Source of the DNA: a virus
Reading direction: 5' to 3' (one strand)
IMG/VR virus record: IMGVR_UViG_3300046492_000199
Length of the DNA: 64,000 nucleotides
Position numbers and translations under genes: made by a program. The notes under the pieces were generated by a model that was given only the letters and a program-made list of their open reading frames with translations, ran no database searches and was not told the origin of the DNA. Below are positions 12,730 to 19,264 of this stretch, in pieces. The stretch's first letter is position 1; each line of letters opens with the position of its first letter.

Positions 12730-13230
12730 TTGACCACAATCGCATTTCGTGACGGCGTACTAGCATCAGATTCAAAAGTATCTTCAGGTTCTGATGTTTT
12801 CGTTGGAGAATTCCAGAAGATTTTTAAATTGATTGTCGAAGAAGAATTATCTTGGATCGATAGATTAGTTTTTAGGAAAGAGCCGGAACAGGTTGAATAT
12901 CTGATTGGCGCAGCTGGCACCTTGGAGGATATTCAGGAGTATATTGGTAATATGTTTATGGGAGGAGAAAGAACCAAAGCAAGTTATGATTGCTCTCTCC
13001 TCGCAGTTTGTCAAGATGATGAAGGCGGTTACATCATTACTAAATATGACGGCGGGCAAAAAGGTTTTCAACTCTCAGCAAAATACGCTTCTATCGGCTC
13101 TGGATACGAAATTGCGCTAGGCGCGATGTATCATGGCGCGTCGGCGGAAGAAGCTGTCAAAGCGGCAATGTATCACGACAATACAAGCGGCGGCGAGTTG
13201 CAAAGAGTGAGCTTCGCTGACGATGAGTGA
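12730..13230 (+). CDS. Ntn-hydrolase (proteasome-beta/HslV-like) peptidase
   Basis: N-terminal (M)TTIA..DGVLASDS; SIGSG..IALGAM; A.EAVKAA...D..SGG. Confidence 0.8.
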   Translation: MTTIAFRDGVLASDSKVSSGSDVFVGEFQKIFKLIVEEELSWIDRLVFRKEPEQVEYLIGAAGTLEDIQEYIGNMFMGGERTKASYDCSLLAVCQDDEGGYIITKYDGGQKGFQLSAKYASIGSGYEIALGAMYHGASAEEAVKAAMYHDNTSGGELQRVSFADDE

Positions 13231-13398
13231 AGAATTTAAAAAGGACTTTGGCGAGCTAAATAAATATTTTGAAATGCTGCGCCAAGGCAACGCAATTGCG
13301 TCTCGTCTCAATGCTCAAATCATTTCCGAACACAGCGCAAAAACTTTATTTGTCAAAATGATTGAGAATTTGACCAAGGAAGTTTTGAAAGATAAAAA

Positions 13399-13755
13399 AT
13401 GAATATAATGATTGACTATGACCTAACCTATACCGCTGCGATTGAGATGTGGCGCATGGTAGTGCCCATGTTTCTGGATCACGGTCATAAGGTTTTCCTA
13501 GTCACGTCGAGAGGGATGGACACGCCGGTTGAACTGGTTAACGATTTCCTTCCTCTAAATATTCCCATAATTTACTGCAACTACAGGGCTAAGAAGAAGG
13601 TCTGCGAAGGGCGCGGTATCAAAATTGATATCTGGATCGATGACGATCCTTATTACATCGTACATGGATTTATTGAAGAAGATGATCAAGATATTCAAAA
13701 CGGACCCGGAGACAGTCACACCGTTCGGCATCTGGTTGGCAACGGGCCTAAATAA
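13399..13755 (+). CDS. HAD-superfamily hydrolase
   Basis: IDYDLTYT, VTSR, IDIWIDDDP. Confidence 0.75.
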   Translation: MNIMIDYDLTYTAAIEMWRMVVPMFLDHGHKVFLVTSRGMDTPVELVNDFLPLNIPIIYCNYRAKKKVCEGRGIKIDIWIDDDPYYIVHGFIEEDDQDIQNGPGDSHTVRHLVGNGPK

Positions 13756-14167
13756 AGCAATCAATATTATTTGGCCTTTTGTGCCACGGCACAGATACGA
13801 ATACCTAGAAGAAAAGTACACTATTAAAAGTTTCGAACTTTACGAGACCACCAGAAATTTAGCCGAGTTAGAAGAGTTTCAATTTAATAAGGGTCCGCGT
13901 TACGTCCCGTTCCCGGACTACAAATATTCGTTTAGGCAGCAAGAAATTGCCGACCAACGCCCCATCACTCGCATTAGTTTGAGTGCTGAGCCGCTTCGAA
14001 GTTATTATCAGATCGATACCTATCAATTAAGTTTCGAAGATAGTTCCGAATATATTAAAAATTTATTAGTACGACAATCCGGTGAACTTTTCAGAAAGAA
14101 GGGTGAGGCTGATATGCGTAAAGTTATTGAAAGTTTATCCCAAAATGACGACAGGAAAATTTATTAA
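13625..14167 (+). CDS. Hypothetical protein (start uncertain)
   Basis: Fills the gap between HAD and Rnl2. Confidence 0.5.
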   Translation: MISGSMTILITSYMDLLKKMIKIFKTDPETVTPFGIWLATGLNKAINIIWPFVPRHRYEYLEEKYTIKSFELYETTRNLAELEEFQFNKGPRYVPFPDYKYSFRQQEIADQRPITRISLSAEPLRSYYQIDTYQLSFEDSSEYIKNLLVRQSGELFRKKGEADMRKVIESLSQNDDRKIY

Positions 14168-15194
14168 ATTCCCTTCTATCGAAGCGTTTTCAAGTGTGAA
14201 TGCCACGGTCAAGCGTCGATTCGAACTTGACAATCGACCAAAGGTGTTGTACCGTGGCAAGGTAAAACTTCATGGCACGAACGCCGGGATCAGAGTCGAT
14301 CCAGATGGGACAGTGACTTGCTTCAAAAGAACCGGGGTTTGCAACGTCGAGAACGATAATGCAGGATTCGCTAATTGGGTGGAGACTGTAAAAGATAAAC
14401 TTATTGTTTATCCTTGGACCTACATCCTTTATGGTGAATGGGCCGGTCCCGGTATTCAAAAGAAAGTGGCTGTATCTCAAATTGCCAAGAAGACTTTCTT
14501 TGTGTTCGCTGCGCATCTTCCTCACGCTGTTATGTTAGAAGCTCTTCCCGGCGAGCCTAGAATTCCTAGCGGAAGTGACAGAAGTAATTATGTGATGCTG
14601 GATAAGAGCGGAATTGATTACGTCTTTAACAAGCACAATGTCTTTGAGACAATCCCTTGGGGAACGGAAGAATTTGTCGTAGATTTCAGGCTGCAAAGCT
14701 CTATGGAGCGTTTCACCAAGGAAGTGACTTCTTTGGTCGAAGCTTGTGACAAAGTCGATCCTTACATTAAAGATCGATACGGAATTGAAGGCATTGGTGA
14801 GGGTTATGTTTTTGTGCCTCTTGATCCAATTGATTCTTTAGACTTCGATGTTTACAGCGATTTTCTTTTCAAGGCTAAGGGTGAGAGCCATCACGTCTCT
14901 TCCTCTGAGAAGAAGGTTTCGATTCAAATCGATCCAGCCGTGCTAGAAGGCTCAGCGGCTTTTGCCAAGGAGTTTGTCACTCAAGGCCGTTGCGAACAAG
15001 GCGTGACTGAGGCTTGCGGCGGGGAAGCTGTGATGAAGAATATGGGCGCATTCATGAAGTGGATCGGCCAAGACGTGCAGAAAGAATCTGTGAATGAGTT
15101 GGAAGCTTCTGGCCTTGATTGGAAGAACGTTTCTAAAGCAGTAAATCAACAAGCGAGAGATTGGTATATCCTCGCAACTGAGAGGAATTTGTAA
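14145..15194 (+). CDS. rnl2: RNA ligase 2 family
   Basis: KVKLHGTNAG (KxHGxN), LYGEWAGPGIQK, IGEGYV, FKAKG; start at ATG 14145. Confidence 0.88.
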   Translation: MTTGKFIKFPSIEAFSSVNATVKRRFELDNRPKVLYRGKVKLHGTNAGIRVDPDGTVTCFKRTGVCNVENDNAGFANWVETVKDKLIVYPWTYILYGEWAGPGIQKKVAVSQIAKKTFFVFAAHLPHAVMLEALPGEPRIPSGSDRSNYVMLDKSGIDYVFNKHNVFETIPWGTEEFVVDFRLQSSMERFTKEVTSLVEACDKVDPYIKDRYGIEGIGEGYVFVPLDPIDSLDFDVYSDFLFKAKGESHHVSSSEKKVSIQIDPAVLEGSAAFAKEFVTQGRCEQGVTEACGGEAVMKNMGAFMKWIGQDVQKESVNELEASGLDWKNVSKAVNQQARDWYILATERNL

Positions 15195-15676
15195 TGTCTA
15201 ACGAGTCTTTTAATGATTACGTAGTTTTCGATCTTGAATCATTGAGTCAAGTCCACGGAAGCGATTTTTATAACATTTCTTATGACTTAAGCGGGGCAGA
15301 AGCTCCTGTGGCTGGCGCTCCGACCACTCCTGATAGTGGTGAAGTCGTTGTCGGTGATCGATTCTACGACACCCTAGCCGGTGAAATCGAAGTAATTTAT
15401 GTTTCGGAGTTTGGTCAGATCGTTGCTAAGTTTAGCGACAACTCTATCTCGCTATTCGAATGCCTAGAAGATATTGAGGATGATGGCTTTGTTAAGGTCT
15501 TGGAAACCTCTGGCTTCATCAACGTGATTCGCGACACAGATTTCAATGACATTTTCTTTGACGATGGTGTGTATCTAACTCGGGATGCGGCGATTGCTGC
15601 ATTTGCAGATAACAAGCTTTCGACATGGGAACTGCTTGACACGACGCCCATTTCTTGGAGCAACAAGAATGACTGA
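15194..15676 (+). CDS. Acidic hypothetical protein
   Basis: TAATG coupling to rnl2. Confidence 0.55.
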   Translation: MSNESFNDYVVFDLESLSQVHGSDFYNISYDLSGAEAPVAGAPTTPDSGEVVVGDRFYDTLAGEIEVIYVSEFGQIVAKFSDNSISLFECLEDIEDDGFVKVLETSGFINVIRDTDFNDIFFDDGVYLTRDAAIAAFADNKLSTWELLDTTPISWSNKND

Positions 15677-15859
15677 CAAGTCAGAAATTTGGGTCACAAG
15701 TGGAACGACTGAAAGTGGCGATCCCATCGCCATTTTCCTTTGGGACAAAATGCCGTCTCGGAAGGAAGTGAAGAAAGTTTATATGGAACTTTATCCTGAC
15801 GAGTATGAAGAAGTGGGCCACGTATATTTCAACATAGAATTAGCAAGTTGGGCAAATAA

Positions 15860-16057
15860 ATGAGAAAAGAAGCTAAAGCAGCAGTCCTCAAAGCCGTTAC
15901 GAAACTCTTGGAAACAGCTACTGATCAACTGGAATATGACATTTACGGCGTAGATGATAAAGACTTGATCAACGTGATGAAGACCACGCTTGAGAAGCAG
16001 GCCGACGTAAATATCCAGCTGGCAGTTAGTTTTCTCAACAAGTTGAACGAGTCGTAA
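15860..16057 (+). CDS. Hypothetical protein
   Basis: Operon tiling. Confidence 0.5.
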   Translation: MRKEAKAAVLKAVTKLLETATDQLEYDIYGVDDKDLINVMKTTLEKQADVNIQLAVSFLNKLNES

Positions 16058-16058
16058 C

Positions 16059-16319
16059 ATGTCAAAGAAAAAGATGGGCTACCATCTCACAGAAATCAAG
16101 AAGGGCGAGTTGGGTAAAAGCTCAAAGATTTTAGAGGAAATTCTTGAGCTTCAGGACGCGGAACAACAGGGCTGTAAGGTTATGGCCCTTGTCGAATTAT
16201 CTGACATGGTAGGCGCGATTCAGGCTTATCTGGTCAGCAATTATCCCGATATGAGTCTTGCCGATCTGATGATTATGGCAGGAATTACGAAACGAGCTTT
16301 TGACAATGGAAGACGATGA
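16059..16319 (+). CDS. MazG-like NTP pyrophosphohydrolase
   Basis: GYH..EI.KG.LG..SKI.EE..EL.DA..Q...M.LVELSD..GAI (EExxE...ELxD metal motif). Confidence 0.7.
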   Translation: MSKKKMGYHLTEIKKGELGKSSKILEEILELQDAEQQGCKVMALVELSDMVGAIQAYLVSNYPDMSLADLMIMAGITKRAFDNGRR

Positions 16320-16509
16320 TTTTGAAAACTCAATGGCGGAATATGATGAAGGTTACGAGCGCGTAAGATCACTTCTTCTAGAACAGTTGCGCCATCTGGA
16401 CCAAGAATATAAAATGCGGGCCAGACCAATTATAGATAAACTTGCGCAGCTTGAAGCCTATAGGCCTTCGCCATTTTTAAGAGAGTTGTCATGGAAGACG
16501 ATAACCTAA
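16300..16509 (+). CDS. Hypothetical coiled-coil protein
   Basis: Overlaps both neighbours. Confidence 0.5.
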   Translation: MTMEDDDFENSMAEYDEGYERVRSLLLEQLRHLDQEYKMRARPIIDKLAQLEAYRPSPFLRELSWKTIT

Positions 16510-17042
16510 TTCGTTACGATCTAATCGCTAAAGCTCTTGACTTTTATAAAGATAAGGGTTATGTGGAGATATGTGTACCGTGGCACGTCAGGCCAGAAAT
16601 TTCGGCACTGACTTGCCCTAGCCCCGATAGGGCATATCCGTTTGAAGATGGCGTGTTTGTCGGCTCGGCTGAACAATCTATGATCCAAATGGCTGTTGAT
16701 GGCGAACTGATCGAAGATCAATATTATGTTGCCTGCTCCCCATGTTTCAGAAATGAGCCGGTTCTCGATGACCTTCATCAAAAATATTTTATGAAGGTCG
16801 AATTGTTTCATTTCGGAACCGCCCAAGACCCGTACAACAAAATCCGCAGAGATGCGTACAACTTCTTTAAAACTTTAACTAATAAAACTATTTATTGGAC
16901 GTTCGAAAACGAGACCGAGACAGATACCGACTTCGAAATAGCTGGCATCGAAATCGGCTCGTACAATTATAGAACTGGCGCTGGAATTACGTGGACCTGT
17001 GGTACTGGCCTCGCATTGCCTCGATTTACTAAGGTGATGTGA
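16491..17042 (+). CDS. Class II aminoacyl-tRNA-synthetase catalytic-core-only protein
   Basis: Motif 1 KGYVEICVP, GSAEQS, motif 2 PCFRNE...FMKVELF, IEIGSY, motif 3 GTGLALPRF; no anticodon-binding domain. Confidence 0.8.
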   Translation: MEDDNLIRYDLIAKALDFYKDKGYVEICVPWHVRPEISALTCPSPDRAYPFEDGVFVGSAEQSMIQMAVDGELIEDQYYVACSPCFRNEPVLDDLHQKYFMKVELFHFGTAQDPYNKIRRDAYNFFKTLTNKTIYWTFENETETDTDFEIAGIEIGSYNYRTGAGITWTCGTGLALPRFTKVM

Positions 17043-17323
17043 TGTTCCAAATTGCTTGGGTAATGTTTGACGGTTCATTTGATATTGCAAACGAATTTGC
17101 CTCATTGAGCGAACTACATGAATGGGCCAGAAAATGGCCATCGTCAGAATATGTTTGGAGACAAATCTGATGACCATCAAATTATTTGATTATAAGCTTT
17201 CTAAATTAACAGAGAAACGAGACGCGGCGATGAGTGCCGGTGCAACAGCCGTCGCGTTGAGACTGACATACGAAATTCTTGAACTAATTAATAATGAAAA
17301 GACTTTAAGAAAATTAGTATATA

Positions 17324-17527
17324 ATGTATAGAGAATTTCATTGTAAAATAGTTAGGGACGAACTTCCAAACGAAGAGGGAAGATGGGTTTCCTATATTGT
17401 AAAAGAGGGAGAAGATATCCCTACTTATGATACAATAATTAGAAATGGATGCCATATAGTCGCTTTGAGGGAAATCAAACCCGGACCCTCGGATCAGCCG
17501 GGGTTTATGGGTCAAGTTAATTTATAA
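17324..17527 (+). CDS. Hypothetical protein
   Basis: Operon tiling. Confidence 0.45.
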   Translation: MYREFHCKIVRDELPNEEGRWVSYIVKEGEDIPTYDTIIRNGCHIVALREIKPGPSDQPGFMGQVNL

Positions 17528-17530
17528 AAT

Positions 17531-19264
17531 ATGACAATAAAAATTGACAGACTAAACGGTCTCTATGTCGCGCGATGCACTTATGAAGAACGTTTGATAC
17601 TGAAGCGTGCCGGATTTAAATTTAATGGTACTCGTTGGGTCACTGAGAATGACGACACGGCGAGGAAGTTTTATGATAACTGCATCGGTGCGGCGAAGGA
17701 ACGTCTAGATAACTTAGACGAAATCAAGCGTCAACTCGTAGAAGCTAGTTTCGCAGATGACTATGACGGCCACCTTCTTGCACCCGATGGCCTGACCTAT
17801 CTCCCGTTCCAACGCGCCGGTATTGCGTTTGCGTTGGAACGTCCTGATACATTGATTGCTGATTCGCCGGGACTTGGCAAGACGGTTCAAGCTCTTGGCG
17901 TTATCAATAATTTAATAAACGTTAAGAACGTTTTGTTAGTTGTCCCTGCCTCGCTCAAAATCAATTGGGCAAAAGAAGCAAGGAAATGGGTTAGGTCTGA
18001 ATTAGGTCTGACAATTGGCACCGCTCATACTAAACCTAAAATCATTATTGATGCTGAAGGCACGAAGAAATCCACCACTGAATACATTTGGCCCGACGAA
18101 AATATTGTAATTATTAATTACGATATGTTGGAACAATTTCATGACGAAGTAAGATCGCGCAAGTGGGATGTTCTGGTCTGCGACGAGGCTCACGTTTTAA
18201 AGAATAAAGAAGCCCGCAAGACCAAGCAAGTCATCGGCTACGAGGGAAAGCGCAGAAAAGATAAAATCAGCGCTATCGAAGCTATCAAGAGGATTTTCCT
18301 AACCGGAACGCCGATCCTGAACAAGCCTCTCGATATGTTCTGCGTCATCTCAGCATTCGGTTTCGAGAATGTTTTTGGCAATTACGTTAAGTTTATCAAG
18401 AAGTTCTGTGCCGCGTTCGAAACCCCTTGGGGCCATTGGGACACAACTGGCACAGATAATCTAGAAGAGTTTCAAGAACTACTCCGCTCCACGTTTATGA
18501 TTCGCCGTCACAAAAACGACGTGCTGAAAGAGTTGCCGCCGAAACGCAGGCAAATCATCACGCTTCCGCAAGACGGCCTTTCTAGAATTGTCAAGAAGGA
18601 AAAGCAAATCTTTTCAGACAATTTGAAAAATCTTATGATCCTCAACGGTGAAAAGACCGAAGCGGATTATGAGGAAATGACTGATGCCCAACTCAGGCAA
18701 CTCATTGATAACATTCATGAAAGAACAAAAAACTTTGATGATGTGGAAGACTTCGATAATTATGAAGCGACTCACTTCGAAGCCATTGCAAATGCCAGAG
18801 AAGAAATCGGCTTAGCCAAACTTCCCATGATGATCGAATATATCAGGTCATTGTTAGAGAGTGGAGAGAAAGTCGTTGTCCTCGTGGTTCACAGAACTGT
18901 GGCTCACAGGATCGCAGACGCGTTCGAAGGCAGTGTGAAATTCATCGGAGGCATGAGCGATAAAGAAAAGAACGCTTCGGTCGAACGTTTCCAGAACGAT
19001 CCTGATTGCCGCGTCTTCGTTGGCAACATTAATGCCGCTGGCGTGGGGATCACATTGACCGAGGCTTGGAACTTGGTCATGGGCGAATTGTGTTTCGTCC
19101 CTGCACTATTGGAGCAGGGCGAAGATAGGATTCACAGAATCGGTCAAACCGCACACGCTCTGATTCACTACCTCATCGTCTCTGGTTCGTTGGAAGAACG
19201 TTTGATGGAAATCGTGTTGGAGAAGTTAGAAATGATTCACGCCGCACTGGATAGGAAGAAATGA
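17531..19264 (+). CDS. SNF2-family (HARP/SMARCAL1-like) helicase/translocase
   Basis: HARP-like N-terminus, ADSPGLGKT, DEAH, LTGTP, AAGVGITL, QGEDRIHRIGQ. Confidence 0.93.
   Translation: MTIKIDRLNGLYVARCTYEERLILKRAGFKFNGTRWVTENDDTARKFYDNCIGAAKERLDNLDEIKRQLVEASFADDYDGHLLAPDGLTYLPFQRAGIAFALERPDTLIADSPGLGKTVQALGVINNLINVKNVLLVVPASLKINWAKEARKWVRSELGLTIGTAHTKPKIIIDAEGTKKSTTEYIWPDENIVIINYDMLEQFHDEVRSRKWDVLVCDEAHVLKNKEARKTKQVIGYEGKRRKDKISAIEAIKRIFLTGTPILNKPLDMFCVISAFGFENVFGNYVKFIKKFCAAFETPWGHWDTTGTDNLEEFQELLRSTFMIRRHKNDVLKELPPKRRQIITLPQDGLSRIVKKEKQIFSDNLKNLMILNGEKTEADYEEMTDAQLRQLIDNIHERTKNFDDVEDFDNYEATHFEAIANAREEIGLAKLPMMIEYIRSLLESGEKVVVLVVHRTVAHRIADAFEGSVKFIGGMSDKEKNASVERFQNDPDCRVFVGNINAAGVGITLTEAWNLVMGELCFVPALLEQGEDRIHRIGQTAHALIHYLIVSGSLEERLMEIVLEKLEMIHAALDRKK

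Follow-up and report, generated by a model that had tools for sequence, protein, structure and literature searches.

Gene organization of the locus

We analyzed a 64,000-nucleotide (nt) stretch of DNA from a large phage (IMG/VR record IMGVR_UViG_3300046492_000199; hereafter, the window), and we focused on three overlapping genes of its plus strand (Table 1). The first gene encodes a HisE/MazG-like protein of 86 amino acids (aa), hereafter the partner, and the last one encodes a protein of 183 aa, hereafter the core, which resembles the catalytic core of seryl-tRNA synthetase (SerRS), a class II aminoacyl-tRNA synthetase (aaRS). A 69-aa open reading frame (ORF) lies between them. The genes of 86 and 69 aa overlap by 20 nt (14 nt when counted from the in-frame ATG of the latter), the genes of 69 and 183 aa overlap by 19 nt, and the 86-aa gene starts one base after the stop codon of an upstream ORF of 65 aa. 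An earlier note on this DNA, made from the sequence alone, had described three overlapping ORFs of these sizes, the last of which carried the class II motifs 1 to 3 and no tRNA anticodon domain. The ORF list, the motifs, and the fold match all confirmed this description.

Core and partner form one conserved unit

The core and the partner were found together across a wide range of genomes. Using tblastn against phage records, we detected the core in 276 records and the partner in 269 records. The respective counts were 112 and 113 for Escherichia, 61 and 59 for Acinetobacter, 13 and 13 for Caulobacter, 10 and 10 for Pectobacterium, and 7 and 7 for Brevundimonas. We then assembled a set of 101 loci, composed of 80 IMG/VR loci that were fetched by the core and 21 loci from bacterial and archaeal genome contigs. 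The partner was encoded on the same strand within 1.5 kb of the core in 77 of the 80 IMG/VR loci, usually directly upstream and with an overlap of 4 to 20 nt. A 78th pair was found in a 448-kb phage contig (L016, G006:C1:155235-155450), where the partner is directly upstream and contains an in-frame TAA; the TAA may be a sequencing error or a recoded stop codon, or else the gene may be a pseudogene. Both genes were also present in 18 of the 21 bacterial and archaeal loci. The linkage that the earlier note had seen in a single genome is therefore real and conserved, as judged from this survey of phage records, IMG/VR loci (78 of 80), and cellular loci.

In several lineages, the two proteins are fused into a single polypeptide. 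Fusions with the core ahead of the partner were identified in gp131 of the Microcystis phage Ma-LMM01 (hhalign probability of 98%), in two archaeal metagenome-assembled genomes (MAGs), one Nanoarchaeota MAG, and one Woesebacteria MAG (L089, L091, L096, and L098, of which L098 is the Nanoarchaeota MAG), and in P0158 and P0230. The reverse order, partner then core, was found in P0114. A 374-aa form of the core from Brevundimonas was also considered as a candidate MazG fusion and was rejected, as its N-terminal extension is not MazG-like. All-against-all clustering of the flanking regions did not reveal any other universal neighbor of the pair. Together, core and partner are one conserved unit.

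This unit is widespread and apparently undescribed. Full-text literature searches returned no published study of the pair. A comparative analysis of jumbo phages mentions MazG-like enzymes generically and nothing more specific (PMC7824862). In sequence databases, the core is labeled as a "seryl-" or "histidyl tRNA synthetase" and the partner as "hypothetical" or "PRA-PH/MazG-like".

A predicted SerRS catalytic core without the tRNA arm

The 183-aa protein presents motif 1 (GYVEICVP), motif 2 (CFRNE...YFMKVE), and motif 3 (GTGLALPR) of class II aaRS and it matched the family phrog_4806 ("histidyl tRNA synthetase") with an E-value of 2.4e-43. We built a profile of the core family (A1) from 64 diverse homologs and searched the PDB with it: the top matches were all SerRS (E-values of 1.8e-7 to 1e-4), with PylRS and AspRS far behind. 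The best NCBIfam model was TIGR00414 (serS; E-value of 2e-4), for which the core scored 20.3 bits vs. an equivalog cut-off of 301.65. The Pfam class II families matched weakly (13.1 bits vs. a cut-off of 29.3 for PF00587, and an E-value of 0.035, under the cut-off, for PF00152), and the hhalign alignment of the core with a canonical archaeal SerRS spanned only the region from motif 1 to motif 2.

The AlphaFold model of the core was confident, with a predicted local distance difference test (pLDDT) of 95.1 and a predicted template modeling score (pTM) of 0.91. Foldseek retrieved compact class II cores of PylRS and SerRS with E-values of about 1e-10. After re-alignment with VIA, the top eight chains were all SerRS (Z of 18.7 to 20.2, 182 of the 183 residues aligned, and 17-26% identity), and the best match, a mitochondrial SerRS (Z of 20.2), gave a root-mean-square deviation (rmsd) of 2.5 Å over these 182 residues. 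HisRS, PylRS, and HisZ scored one to two Z units below SerRS. By its motifs, its confident model, and its Foldseek and VIA matches, the core has the catalytic fold of class II aaRS.

The residues S59, E61, Q62, P84, C85, R87, F100, K102, E104, D147, E154, G156, S157, T172, and R178 were found invariant in the 64 homologs, and the blocks VGSAEQ, PCFRNE, F.KVE, and E.GS with GTGLA.PR were invariant or nearly so. In block alignments, these correspond to TAE/TSE, CFRRE, F.KVE, and EVGS of SerRS, respectively, and GTGLA.PR is the motif 3 of the core family. Based on the complexes of Thermus thermophilus SerRS, we take these signature positions to be those that contact the amino and hydroxyl groups of serine, the adenine, the phosphates, and Mg. 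A profile search of 1.84 billion representative sequences yielded 1,206 clusters of the core (50% identity) at E-values of at most 1e-30, most of them 180-200 aa long.

Relative to solved SerRS structures (class IIa; 2dq3, 1ser/9qrp, 7u2a, and 6r1o), the core presents the same fold along its whole length, the signature blocks for serine, ATP, and Mg, and the highest identity of any solved family. In contrast, it is less than half as long, it lacks the N-terminal coiled-coil arm, its motif-2 loop is shorter, and it falls far under the serS cut-off. Compared to the sequence of Escherichia coli SerRS, the stretch from motif 2 to motif 3 presumably has trimmed hairpins as well. SerRS also differs in not being paired with a HisE/MazG-like protein, which nearly always accompanies the core. 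As predicted from its sequence and model, the 183-aa protein corresponds to the catalytic core of SerRS with trimmed loops and without the tRNA arm, and its sequence keeps all the blocks predicted to be required for adenylate formation.

No anticodon-binding or coiled-coil domain was detected in the 183-aa protein, whose catalytic core makes up its entire length. We obtained no match to the SerRS arm (PF02403) in five records of related phages, including three with a completeness of 99% or more, while 13 of the 14 control genomes scored in this search. A split SerRS whose arm would be encoded elsewhere was rejected on these grounds. With no arm in the core and none in these five records, the earlier note's view that this is not a conventional tRNA-charging subunit with a partner elsewhere held up.

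It is nonetheless worth considering that the core serves as a conventional or back-up SerRS, charging host or phage tRNA-Ser with tRNA recognition provided by another subunit. The active site is conserved, databases annotate the protein as a synthetase, and five of the loci that we scanned (L012, L013, L041, L074, and L084) have tRNA-Ser genes in the vicinity of the pair. However, this scenario appears very unlikely in light of the missing arm, the low serS score, and the presence of a normal SerRS in at least one pair-bearing cell (L098). Moreover, arm-deleted E. coli SerRS was reportedly found by Borel and colleagues in 1994 to activate serine still and to charge tRNA no longer. Since the core is devoid of the arm, it would not perform classical selection of tRNA-Ser.

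Alternatively, the core might be a non-catalytic, HisZ-like subunit that senses a ligand and controls the HisE-like enzyme. The Z scores of HisZ (17.7 to 18.2) are near those of SerRS, and HisE and HisZ share one pathway. This is the least probable of the explanations that we considered: unlike HisZ, the ~1,200 clusters invariably keep the arginines of motifs 2 and 3 together with the acidic and Ser/Thr residues of the active site, the identity of the core to HisZ is 7-9%, and no HisG-like neighbor turned up at the loci of the pair.

The partner is a probable member of the HisE/MazG superfamily

The 86-aa protein matched phrog_6408, a family without an assigned function, with an E-value of 1.6e-36. 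Among 39 homologs, the residues Y8, H9, G16, S22, K23, E26, E27, E30, E46, D49, A53, T77, and G84 were invariant. These include the EExxE...ExxD signature of all-alpha nucleoside triphosphate (NTP) pyrophosphohydrolases (E26, E27, E30, E46, and D49), which was 100% conserved. The Pfam family PRA-PH (PF01503, HisE) matched 27 of the 39 members at an E-value of at most 1 (best of 5e-4) and no other family recurred; the partner of the window itself scored 12.6 bits, under the gathering score of 21.3. In the ESM Atlas, the neighbors of the partner that bear a family name were PRA-PH/MazG.

The structural model of the partner (pLDDT of 93.6) consists of an N-terminal coil followed by three helices. 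HisE/MazG structures (1yvw, 2a7w, 1y6x, 3cra, and 1vmg) superpose on most of this model, with an rmsd of 1.3-1.9 Å over 52-63 residues. In these structures as in the partner, two antiparallel helices carry the EExxE...ExxD metal-binding motif. The fold scores (Z of 6.2 for the HisE structure 1yvw and 5.2 for the MazG structures 3cra and 1vmg; Foldseek E-values of 1.2-5) are equaled by those of unrelated helical proteins. Contrary to known members, the partner comprises no more than three helices, which follow a conserved N-terminal coil (GYH..I.KG..G..SK), it scores below the Pfam gathering score, and its gene is coupled or fused to that of an aaRS-like core. The label "MazG-like" used in the earlier note thus stands at the level of the superfamily, given the EExxE...ExxD motif and the PRA-PH matches, although HisE is the nearer family.

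Sequence evolution is slower in the partner than in the core: the partner shares 62.5% identity with its counterpart in Vibrio phage 2.275.O vs. 40% for the core, and 55.8% vs. 36.9% in the coliphage A73. Because their catalytic residues are invariant, both proteins are probably active enzymes.

The middle ORF is not shared across lineages

We did not find any family match for the 69-aa ORF, nor any tblastn match in 50,697 phage records. Its homologs were only found in the four closest IMG/VR loci (L005-L008), with 35-88% identity. The ratio of nonsynonymous to synonymous substitution rates (dN/dS) relative to L005 was 0.24 for this ORF, 0.16 for the partner, and 0.06 for the core. The ORF probably encodes a real protein that is small, acidic, and helical. 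Other lineages present inserts between the two conserved genes that are unrelated to the 69-aa ORF and to one another, and some lineages have none. Judging from this distribution, the ORF is best described as a clade-specific passenger and not as a conserved third component. The earlier note had proposed to test it as an acceptor, but an ORF that is not conserved outside of these loci would not constitute a general acceptor.

The pair in translation and RNA contexts

Several lineages carry the pair next to genes of translation. Genes for tRNAs were found within 4 kb of the pair in 18 of 60 IMG/VR loci, and the pair is embedded in tRNA arrays in ~7 phage lineages. In Saccharibacteria-type genomes (L090, L099, L100, and L103), the pair and a NUDIX gene are located between rpsG and fusA, beside rpsL and rpoC. 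In these four genomes, the gene encoding a winged helix-turn-helix (wHTH)-NUDIX protein is divergently transcribed and the insertion lies inside an otherwise conserved str-operon region. The Nanoarchaeota MAG (L098) encodes a canonical SerRS of 431 aa (PF02403 and PF00587) 1 kb upstream of the fused gene. The mini-core would therefore add to SerRS in this genome rather than replace it. A Woesearchaeota MAG presents Trm1 near the pair.

An RNA_pol_A_CTD domain (PF03118), which contains a helix-hairpin-helix, is fused to the N-terminus of the core in P0065 (25.0 bits) and P0135 (25.9 bits), above the gathering score of 23.8. These fusions are phage proteins of the Caulobacter and Brevundimonas types, and the match of P0070 is weaker. 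The fusion hints that the core may be tethered to nucleic acid.

The chromosomal loci bear on the roles that the earlier note had put forward, i.e., anti-defense or base modification. These are no longer the leading candidates, as the same pair is chromosomal in bacteria of the candidate phyla radiation (CPR) and in DPANN archaea, in the rpoC-rpsL-rpsG...fusA region or beside a canonical SerRS. A stable chromosomal position near core translation genes in CPR and DPANN genomes argues against a dedicated anti-defense role and favors a housekeeping-type function, which large phages would require as well. Overall, the role of the pair looks like translation- or nucleotide-linked housekeeping in large phages and in cells with reduced genomes.

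An anti-defense or signaling device would have the core make a dinucleoside polyphosphate or another signal from seryl-adenylate (seryl-AMP) while the partner breaks down an immune nucleotide of the host. Synthesis of diadenosine tetraphosphate (Ap4A) is a known capacity of class II synthetases, MazG-type enzymes of phages have often been proposed to act on alarmones, and the module is rich in phages. Yet, this is highly improbable: the pair is stably chromosomal by core translation genes in Saccharibacteria, it is present in DPANN archaea, it is not found in variable islands, and no defense-linked neighbor recurs. In addition, a synthase and a hydrolase acting on the same type of bond would be futile.

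Neighbors of nucleotide metabolism and added domains

Anaerobic ribonucleotide reductase (RNR) genes adjoin the pair in the coliphage JLBYU50. At several loci (Table 1), the pair is flanked by genes encoding a small radical S-adenosylmethionine (SAM) enzyme or an AAA_28 kinase. The radical SAM enzyme is 227-256 aa long and its cluster region is similar to those of MoaA, viperin, and NrdG. The kinase is a P-loop protein of the NadR-RNK-like type, and it is fused to CYTH in one case.

We also identified an additional domain of ~185 aa, which we call domain X, that is fused to either end of the partner or is encoded between partner and core (Table 1); it is not found in the window. Domain X did not match any sequence of Pfam or the PDB, and the ESM Atlas provided weak leads to thiol dioxygenases of the CDO/ADO type and to Cupin_2. 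Its invariant residues are H38, H54, H56 (in HDHRY), C91, G118, Y121, and H129 (numbering of L038). Based on this conservation pattern, the histidines look like a cupin-like metal site with three histidines.

These added components, together with the rpsG-fusA location of the pair in Saccharibacteria, raise the possibility that the pair modifies a protein in a manner similar to EpmA, by transferring serine or a derivative onto a conserved component of the translation machinery, for instance a ribosomal protein or an elongation factor. A precedent is EpmA/PoxA, a class II core that works on elongation factor P without tRNA, and the radical SAM enzyme or the cupin-like domain X found at some loci recalls EpmB and EpmC. 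However, nothing in the EpmA pathway corresponds to the universal HisE-like partner, the core resembles SerRS and not LysRS, and no conserved candidate acceptor gene was seen linked to the pair. The target would also have to be common to bacteria, archaea, and the hosts of the phages. We regard this explanation as quite unlikely.

Proposed function of the pair

The overall best explanation of the pair is that the two proteins are subunits of one conserved enzyme unit that acts on a non-canonical acceptor, to which we attribute a probability of roughly 0.4. The results described above show how the genes are arranged, which fold and motifs are conserved, and that the two genes occur together and are sometimes fused; from these we infer the catalytic steps, the amino acid used, the formation of a complex, and the nature of the acceptor in the following scheme. 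The core would bind ATP and L-serine (or a very close analog) and form seryl-adenylate, and the partner would split the alpha-beta bond of a substrate of the nucleoside-triphosphate type. The near-obligate linkage of the two genes and the fusions in both orders suggest that the two proteins work together, probably in a complex. This first layer, in which a seryl-adenylate-forming SerRS core acts jointly with an active HisE/MazG pyrophosphohydrolase, is likely.

The second layer concerns the acceptor and is more tentative. The armless core would pass the seryl group to an acceptor that is selected by other means than the coiled-coil arm, and the partner would handle a triphosphate or pyrophosphate group within the same pathway. 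The candidate acceptor that we favor, just ahead of a free nucleotide, is the terminal ribose of a 3' end of the RNA or tRNA type. The translation and RNA contexts of the pair described above speak for this candidate.

Several observations weigh against this enzyme unit or its RNA-type acceptor. The window does not contain any tRNA gene across its 64 kb. The proximity of tRNA genes to the pair in IMG/VR loci is a raw count that has no genome-wide baseline. A GatB/YqeY protein follows the core in the coliphage JLBYU50, but no homolog was found in the 101 loci or in the window; it is confined to the clade of JLBYU50, which led us to reject it as a general partner. An RNA ligase was likewise rejected as a linked partner, as it adjoins the pair in the L005-L008 clade only. 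The motif-2 loop, which touches the acceptor stem in SerRS, is six residues shorter in the core than in Aquifex SerRS according to the profile alignment. We know of no role of a HisE/MazG enzyme in tRNA charging. Two bacterial MAGs with large genomes, from Pirellulaceae (L094) and Verrucomicrobiia (L101), encode a core of 181 aa and no partner was detected in their entire assemblies; these are rare exceptions to the pairing or incomplete assemblies. Finally, the core is acidic (isoelectric point of 4.6 in the window and family median of 5.2), and the neighbors of the pair include the large and small subunits of RNR, deoxynucleoside monophosphate (dNMP) kinase, and UvrD-like helicases in phage loci, and the AAA_28 kinase, a Udk-like kinase, the wHTH-NUDIX protein, and the small radical SAM enzyme in CPR and archaeal loci.

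These last points would instead favor a nucleotide pathway. In such a pathway, the partner would produce a nucleoside monophosphate from an NTP or its deoxy form, possibly modified, and the core would join serine to the free nucleotide or build a derivative from seryl-AMP. The logic would resemble that of the MazZ-PurZ and HisG/HisZ-HisE pairs. The superfamily of the obligate partner acts on nucleoside triphosphates, and the acidity of the core and its neighbors (RNR, the dNMP, AAA_28, and Udk-like kinases, NUDIX, and the radical SAM enzyme) point in the same direction. However, each of these neighbor associations was found in 3 to 19 loci and none is universal. A nucleotide pathway would also leave the tRNA arrays, the str operon, the SerRS neighbor, and the helix-hairpin-helix fusions unexplained and, to our knowledge, no characterized paralog of class II aaRS acylates a free nucleotide. 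Overall, we consider a nucleotide pathway doubtful, and we rank its free nucleotide second among the candidate acceptors.

A bolder version of the enzyme unit is that it constitutes a new aminoacylation pathway run by one enzyme, which would make a serine-nucleotide conjugate or would serylate or repair RNA 3' ends outside of the identity rules of tRNA-Ser. We consider this version unlikely.

Comparison with known systems

The core can be compared to the tRNA-independent paralogs of class II aaRS, namely the amino acid:carrier-protein ligases, EpmA/PoxA, AsnA, and HisZ. These are likewise stand-alone cores without tRNA-recognition domains, and they use adenylate chemistry on non-tRNA partners or have lost it. 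None of the four is paired with an NTP pyrophosphohydrolase, unlike the core. The core scored 11 bits vs. a cut-off of 357 for the amino acid:[carrier protein] ligase model (NF005479), and no carrier-protein-like neighbor recurred in the 101 loci. EpmA and AsnA belong to class IIb (Lys/Asp-like) whereas the core is SerRS-like, and EpmA chains were not among the VIA matches listed. As for HisZ, it lacks the catalytic residues that are invariant in the core.

MazZ-PurZ, a pair found in phages with Z genomes, would be similar in its pathway logic only. It combines a MazG-type pyrophosphohydrolase with an ATP-dependent enzyme that ligates an amino acid, and both systems are found in regions of nucleotide metabolism. 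PurZ is a homolog of adenylosuccinate synthetase. It does not present the class II aaRS fold, and no Z-genome genes were linked to the core-partner pair.

Neighboring genes in the window

The three genes are part of a tightly packed train of co-directional genes (~12730-19264), in which no convincing internal promoter or terminator was detected. This train also includes an RNA ligase, an HslV-like peptidase, an SNF2-family helicase (Table 1), and small ORFs. The ligase, the peptidase, and the helicase were found as neighbors of the pair only in the close relatives of the window (L005-L008). The closest relatives of the window are IMG/VR contigs, with a core that is 92% identical in L005. Among cultured relatives with the pair, Vibrio phage 2.275.O is the nearest.

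Table 1. Positions of the genes and domains discussed in the text, in the window and in other loci.
Feature	Locus	Position	Strand	Remarks
86-aa HisE/MazG-like gene (phrog_6408)	window	16059..16319	+	ATG start
69-aa acidic, helical middle ORF	window	16300..16509	+	TTG start; in-frame ATG at 16306
183-aa SerRS-like class II core gene (phrog_4806)	window	16491..17042	+	ATG start
HslV-like peptidase (phrog_1040)	window	12730-13230		same gene train
RNA ligase (PF09414, phrog_548)	window	14082-15194		same gene train
SNF2-family helicase	window	17531-19264		same gene train
Canonical SerRS	L098	2798-4093		
Core-partner fusion	L098	4977-5792		
Domain X then partner	L009	3067-4014		
Domain X then partner	L015	3172-3999		
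Domain X then partner	L028	4567-5436		
Domain X then partner	L035	3106-4011		
Domain X then partner	L064	2517-3449		weaker match
Domain X then partner	L085	3719-4618		
Partner then domain X	L087	3965-4762		
Partner then domain X	L052	3135-4007		
Stand-alone domain X	L038	3421-3984		between partner and core
Small radical SAM or AAA_28 kinase gene	L089	5797-6480		flanks the pair
Small radical SAM or AAA_28 kinase gene	L091	5786-6472		flanks the pair
Small radical SAM or AAA_28 kinase gene	L096	4240-5010		flanks the pair
Small radical SAM or AAA_28 kinase gene	L089	4472-5002		flanks the pair
Small radical SAM or AAA_28 kinase gene	L103	4043-4699		flanks the pair
Small radical SAM or AAA_28 kinase gene	L087	5366-6454		flanks the pair

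Significance

The core and its partner are among the most widespread uncharacterized enzyme pairs of large phages, including genetically tractable coliphages, and the same pair is common to large phages, ultra-small CPR bacteria, and DPANN archaea. With 183 residues, this apparently active core, which is predicted to form adenylates, would represent a natural and nearly minimal class II enzyme, with implications for the evolution of aaRS. The pair may also bear on how phages take over translation or nucleotide pools, and it might generate a new amino-acid conjugate. If the pair does define a new aminoacylation pathway, this pathway would be common to large phages, CPR bacteria, and DPANN archaea and would sometimes be extended by a cupin-like domain or a radical SAM enzyme.

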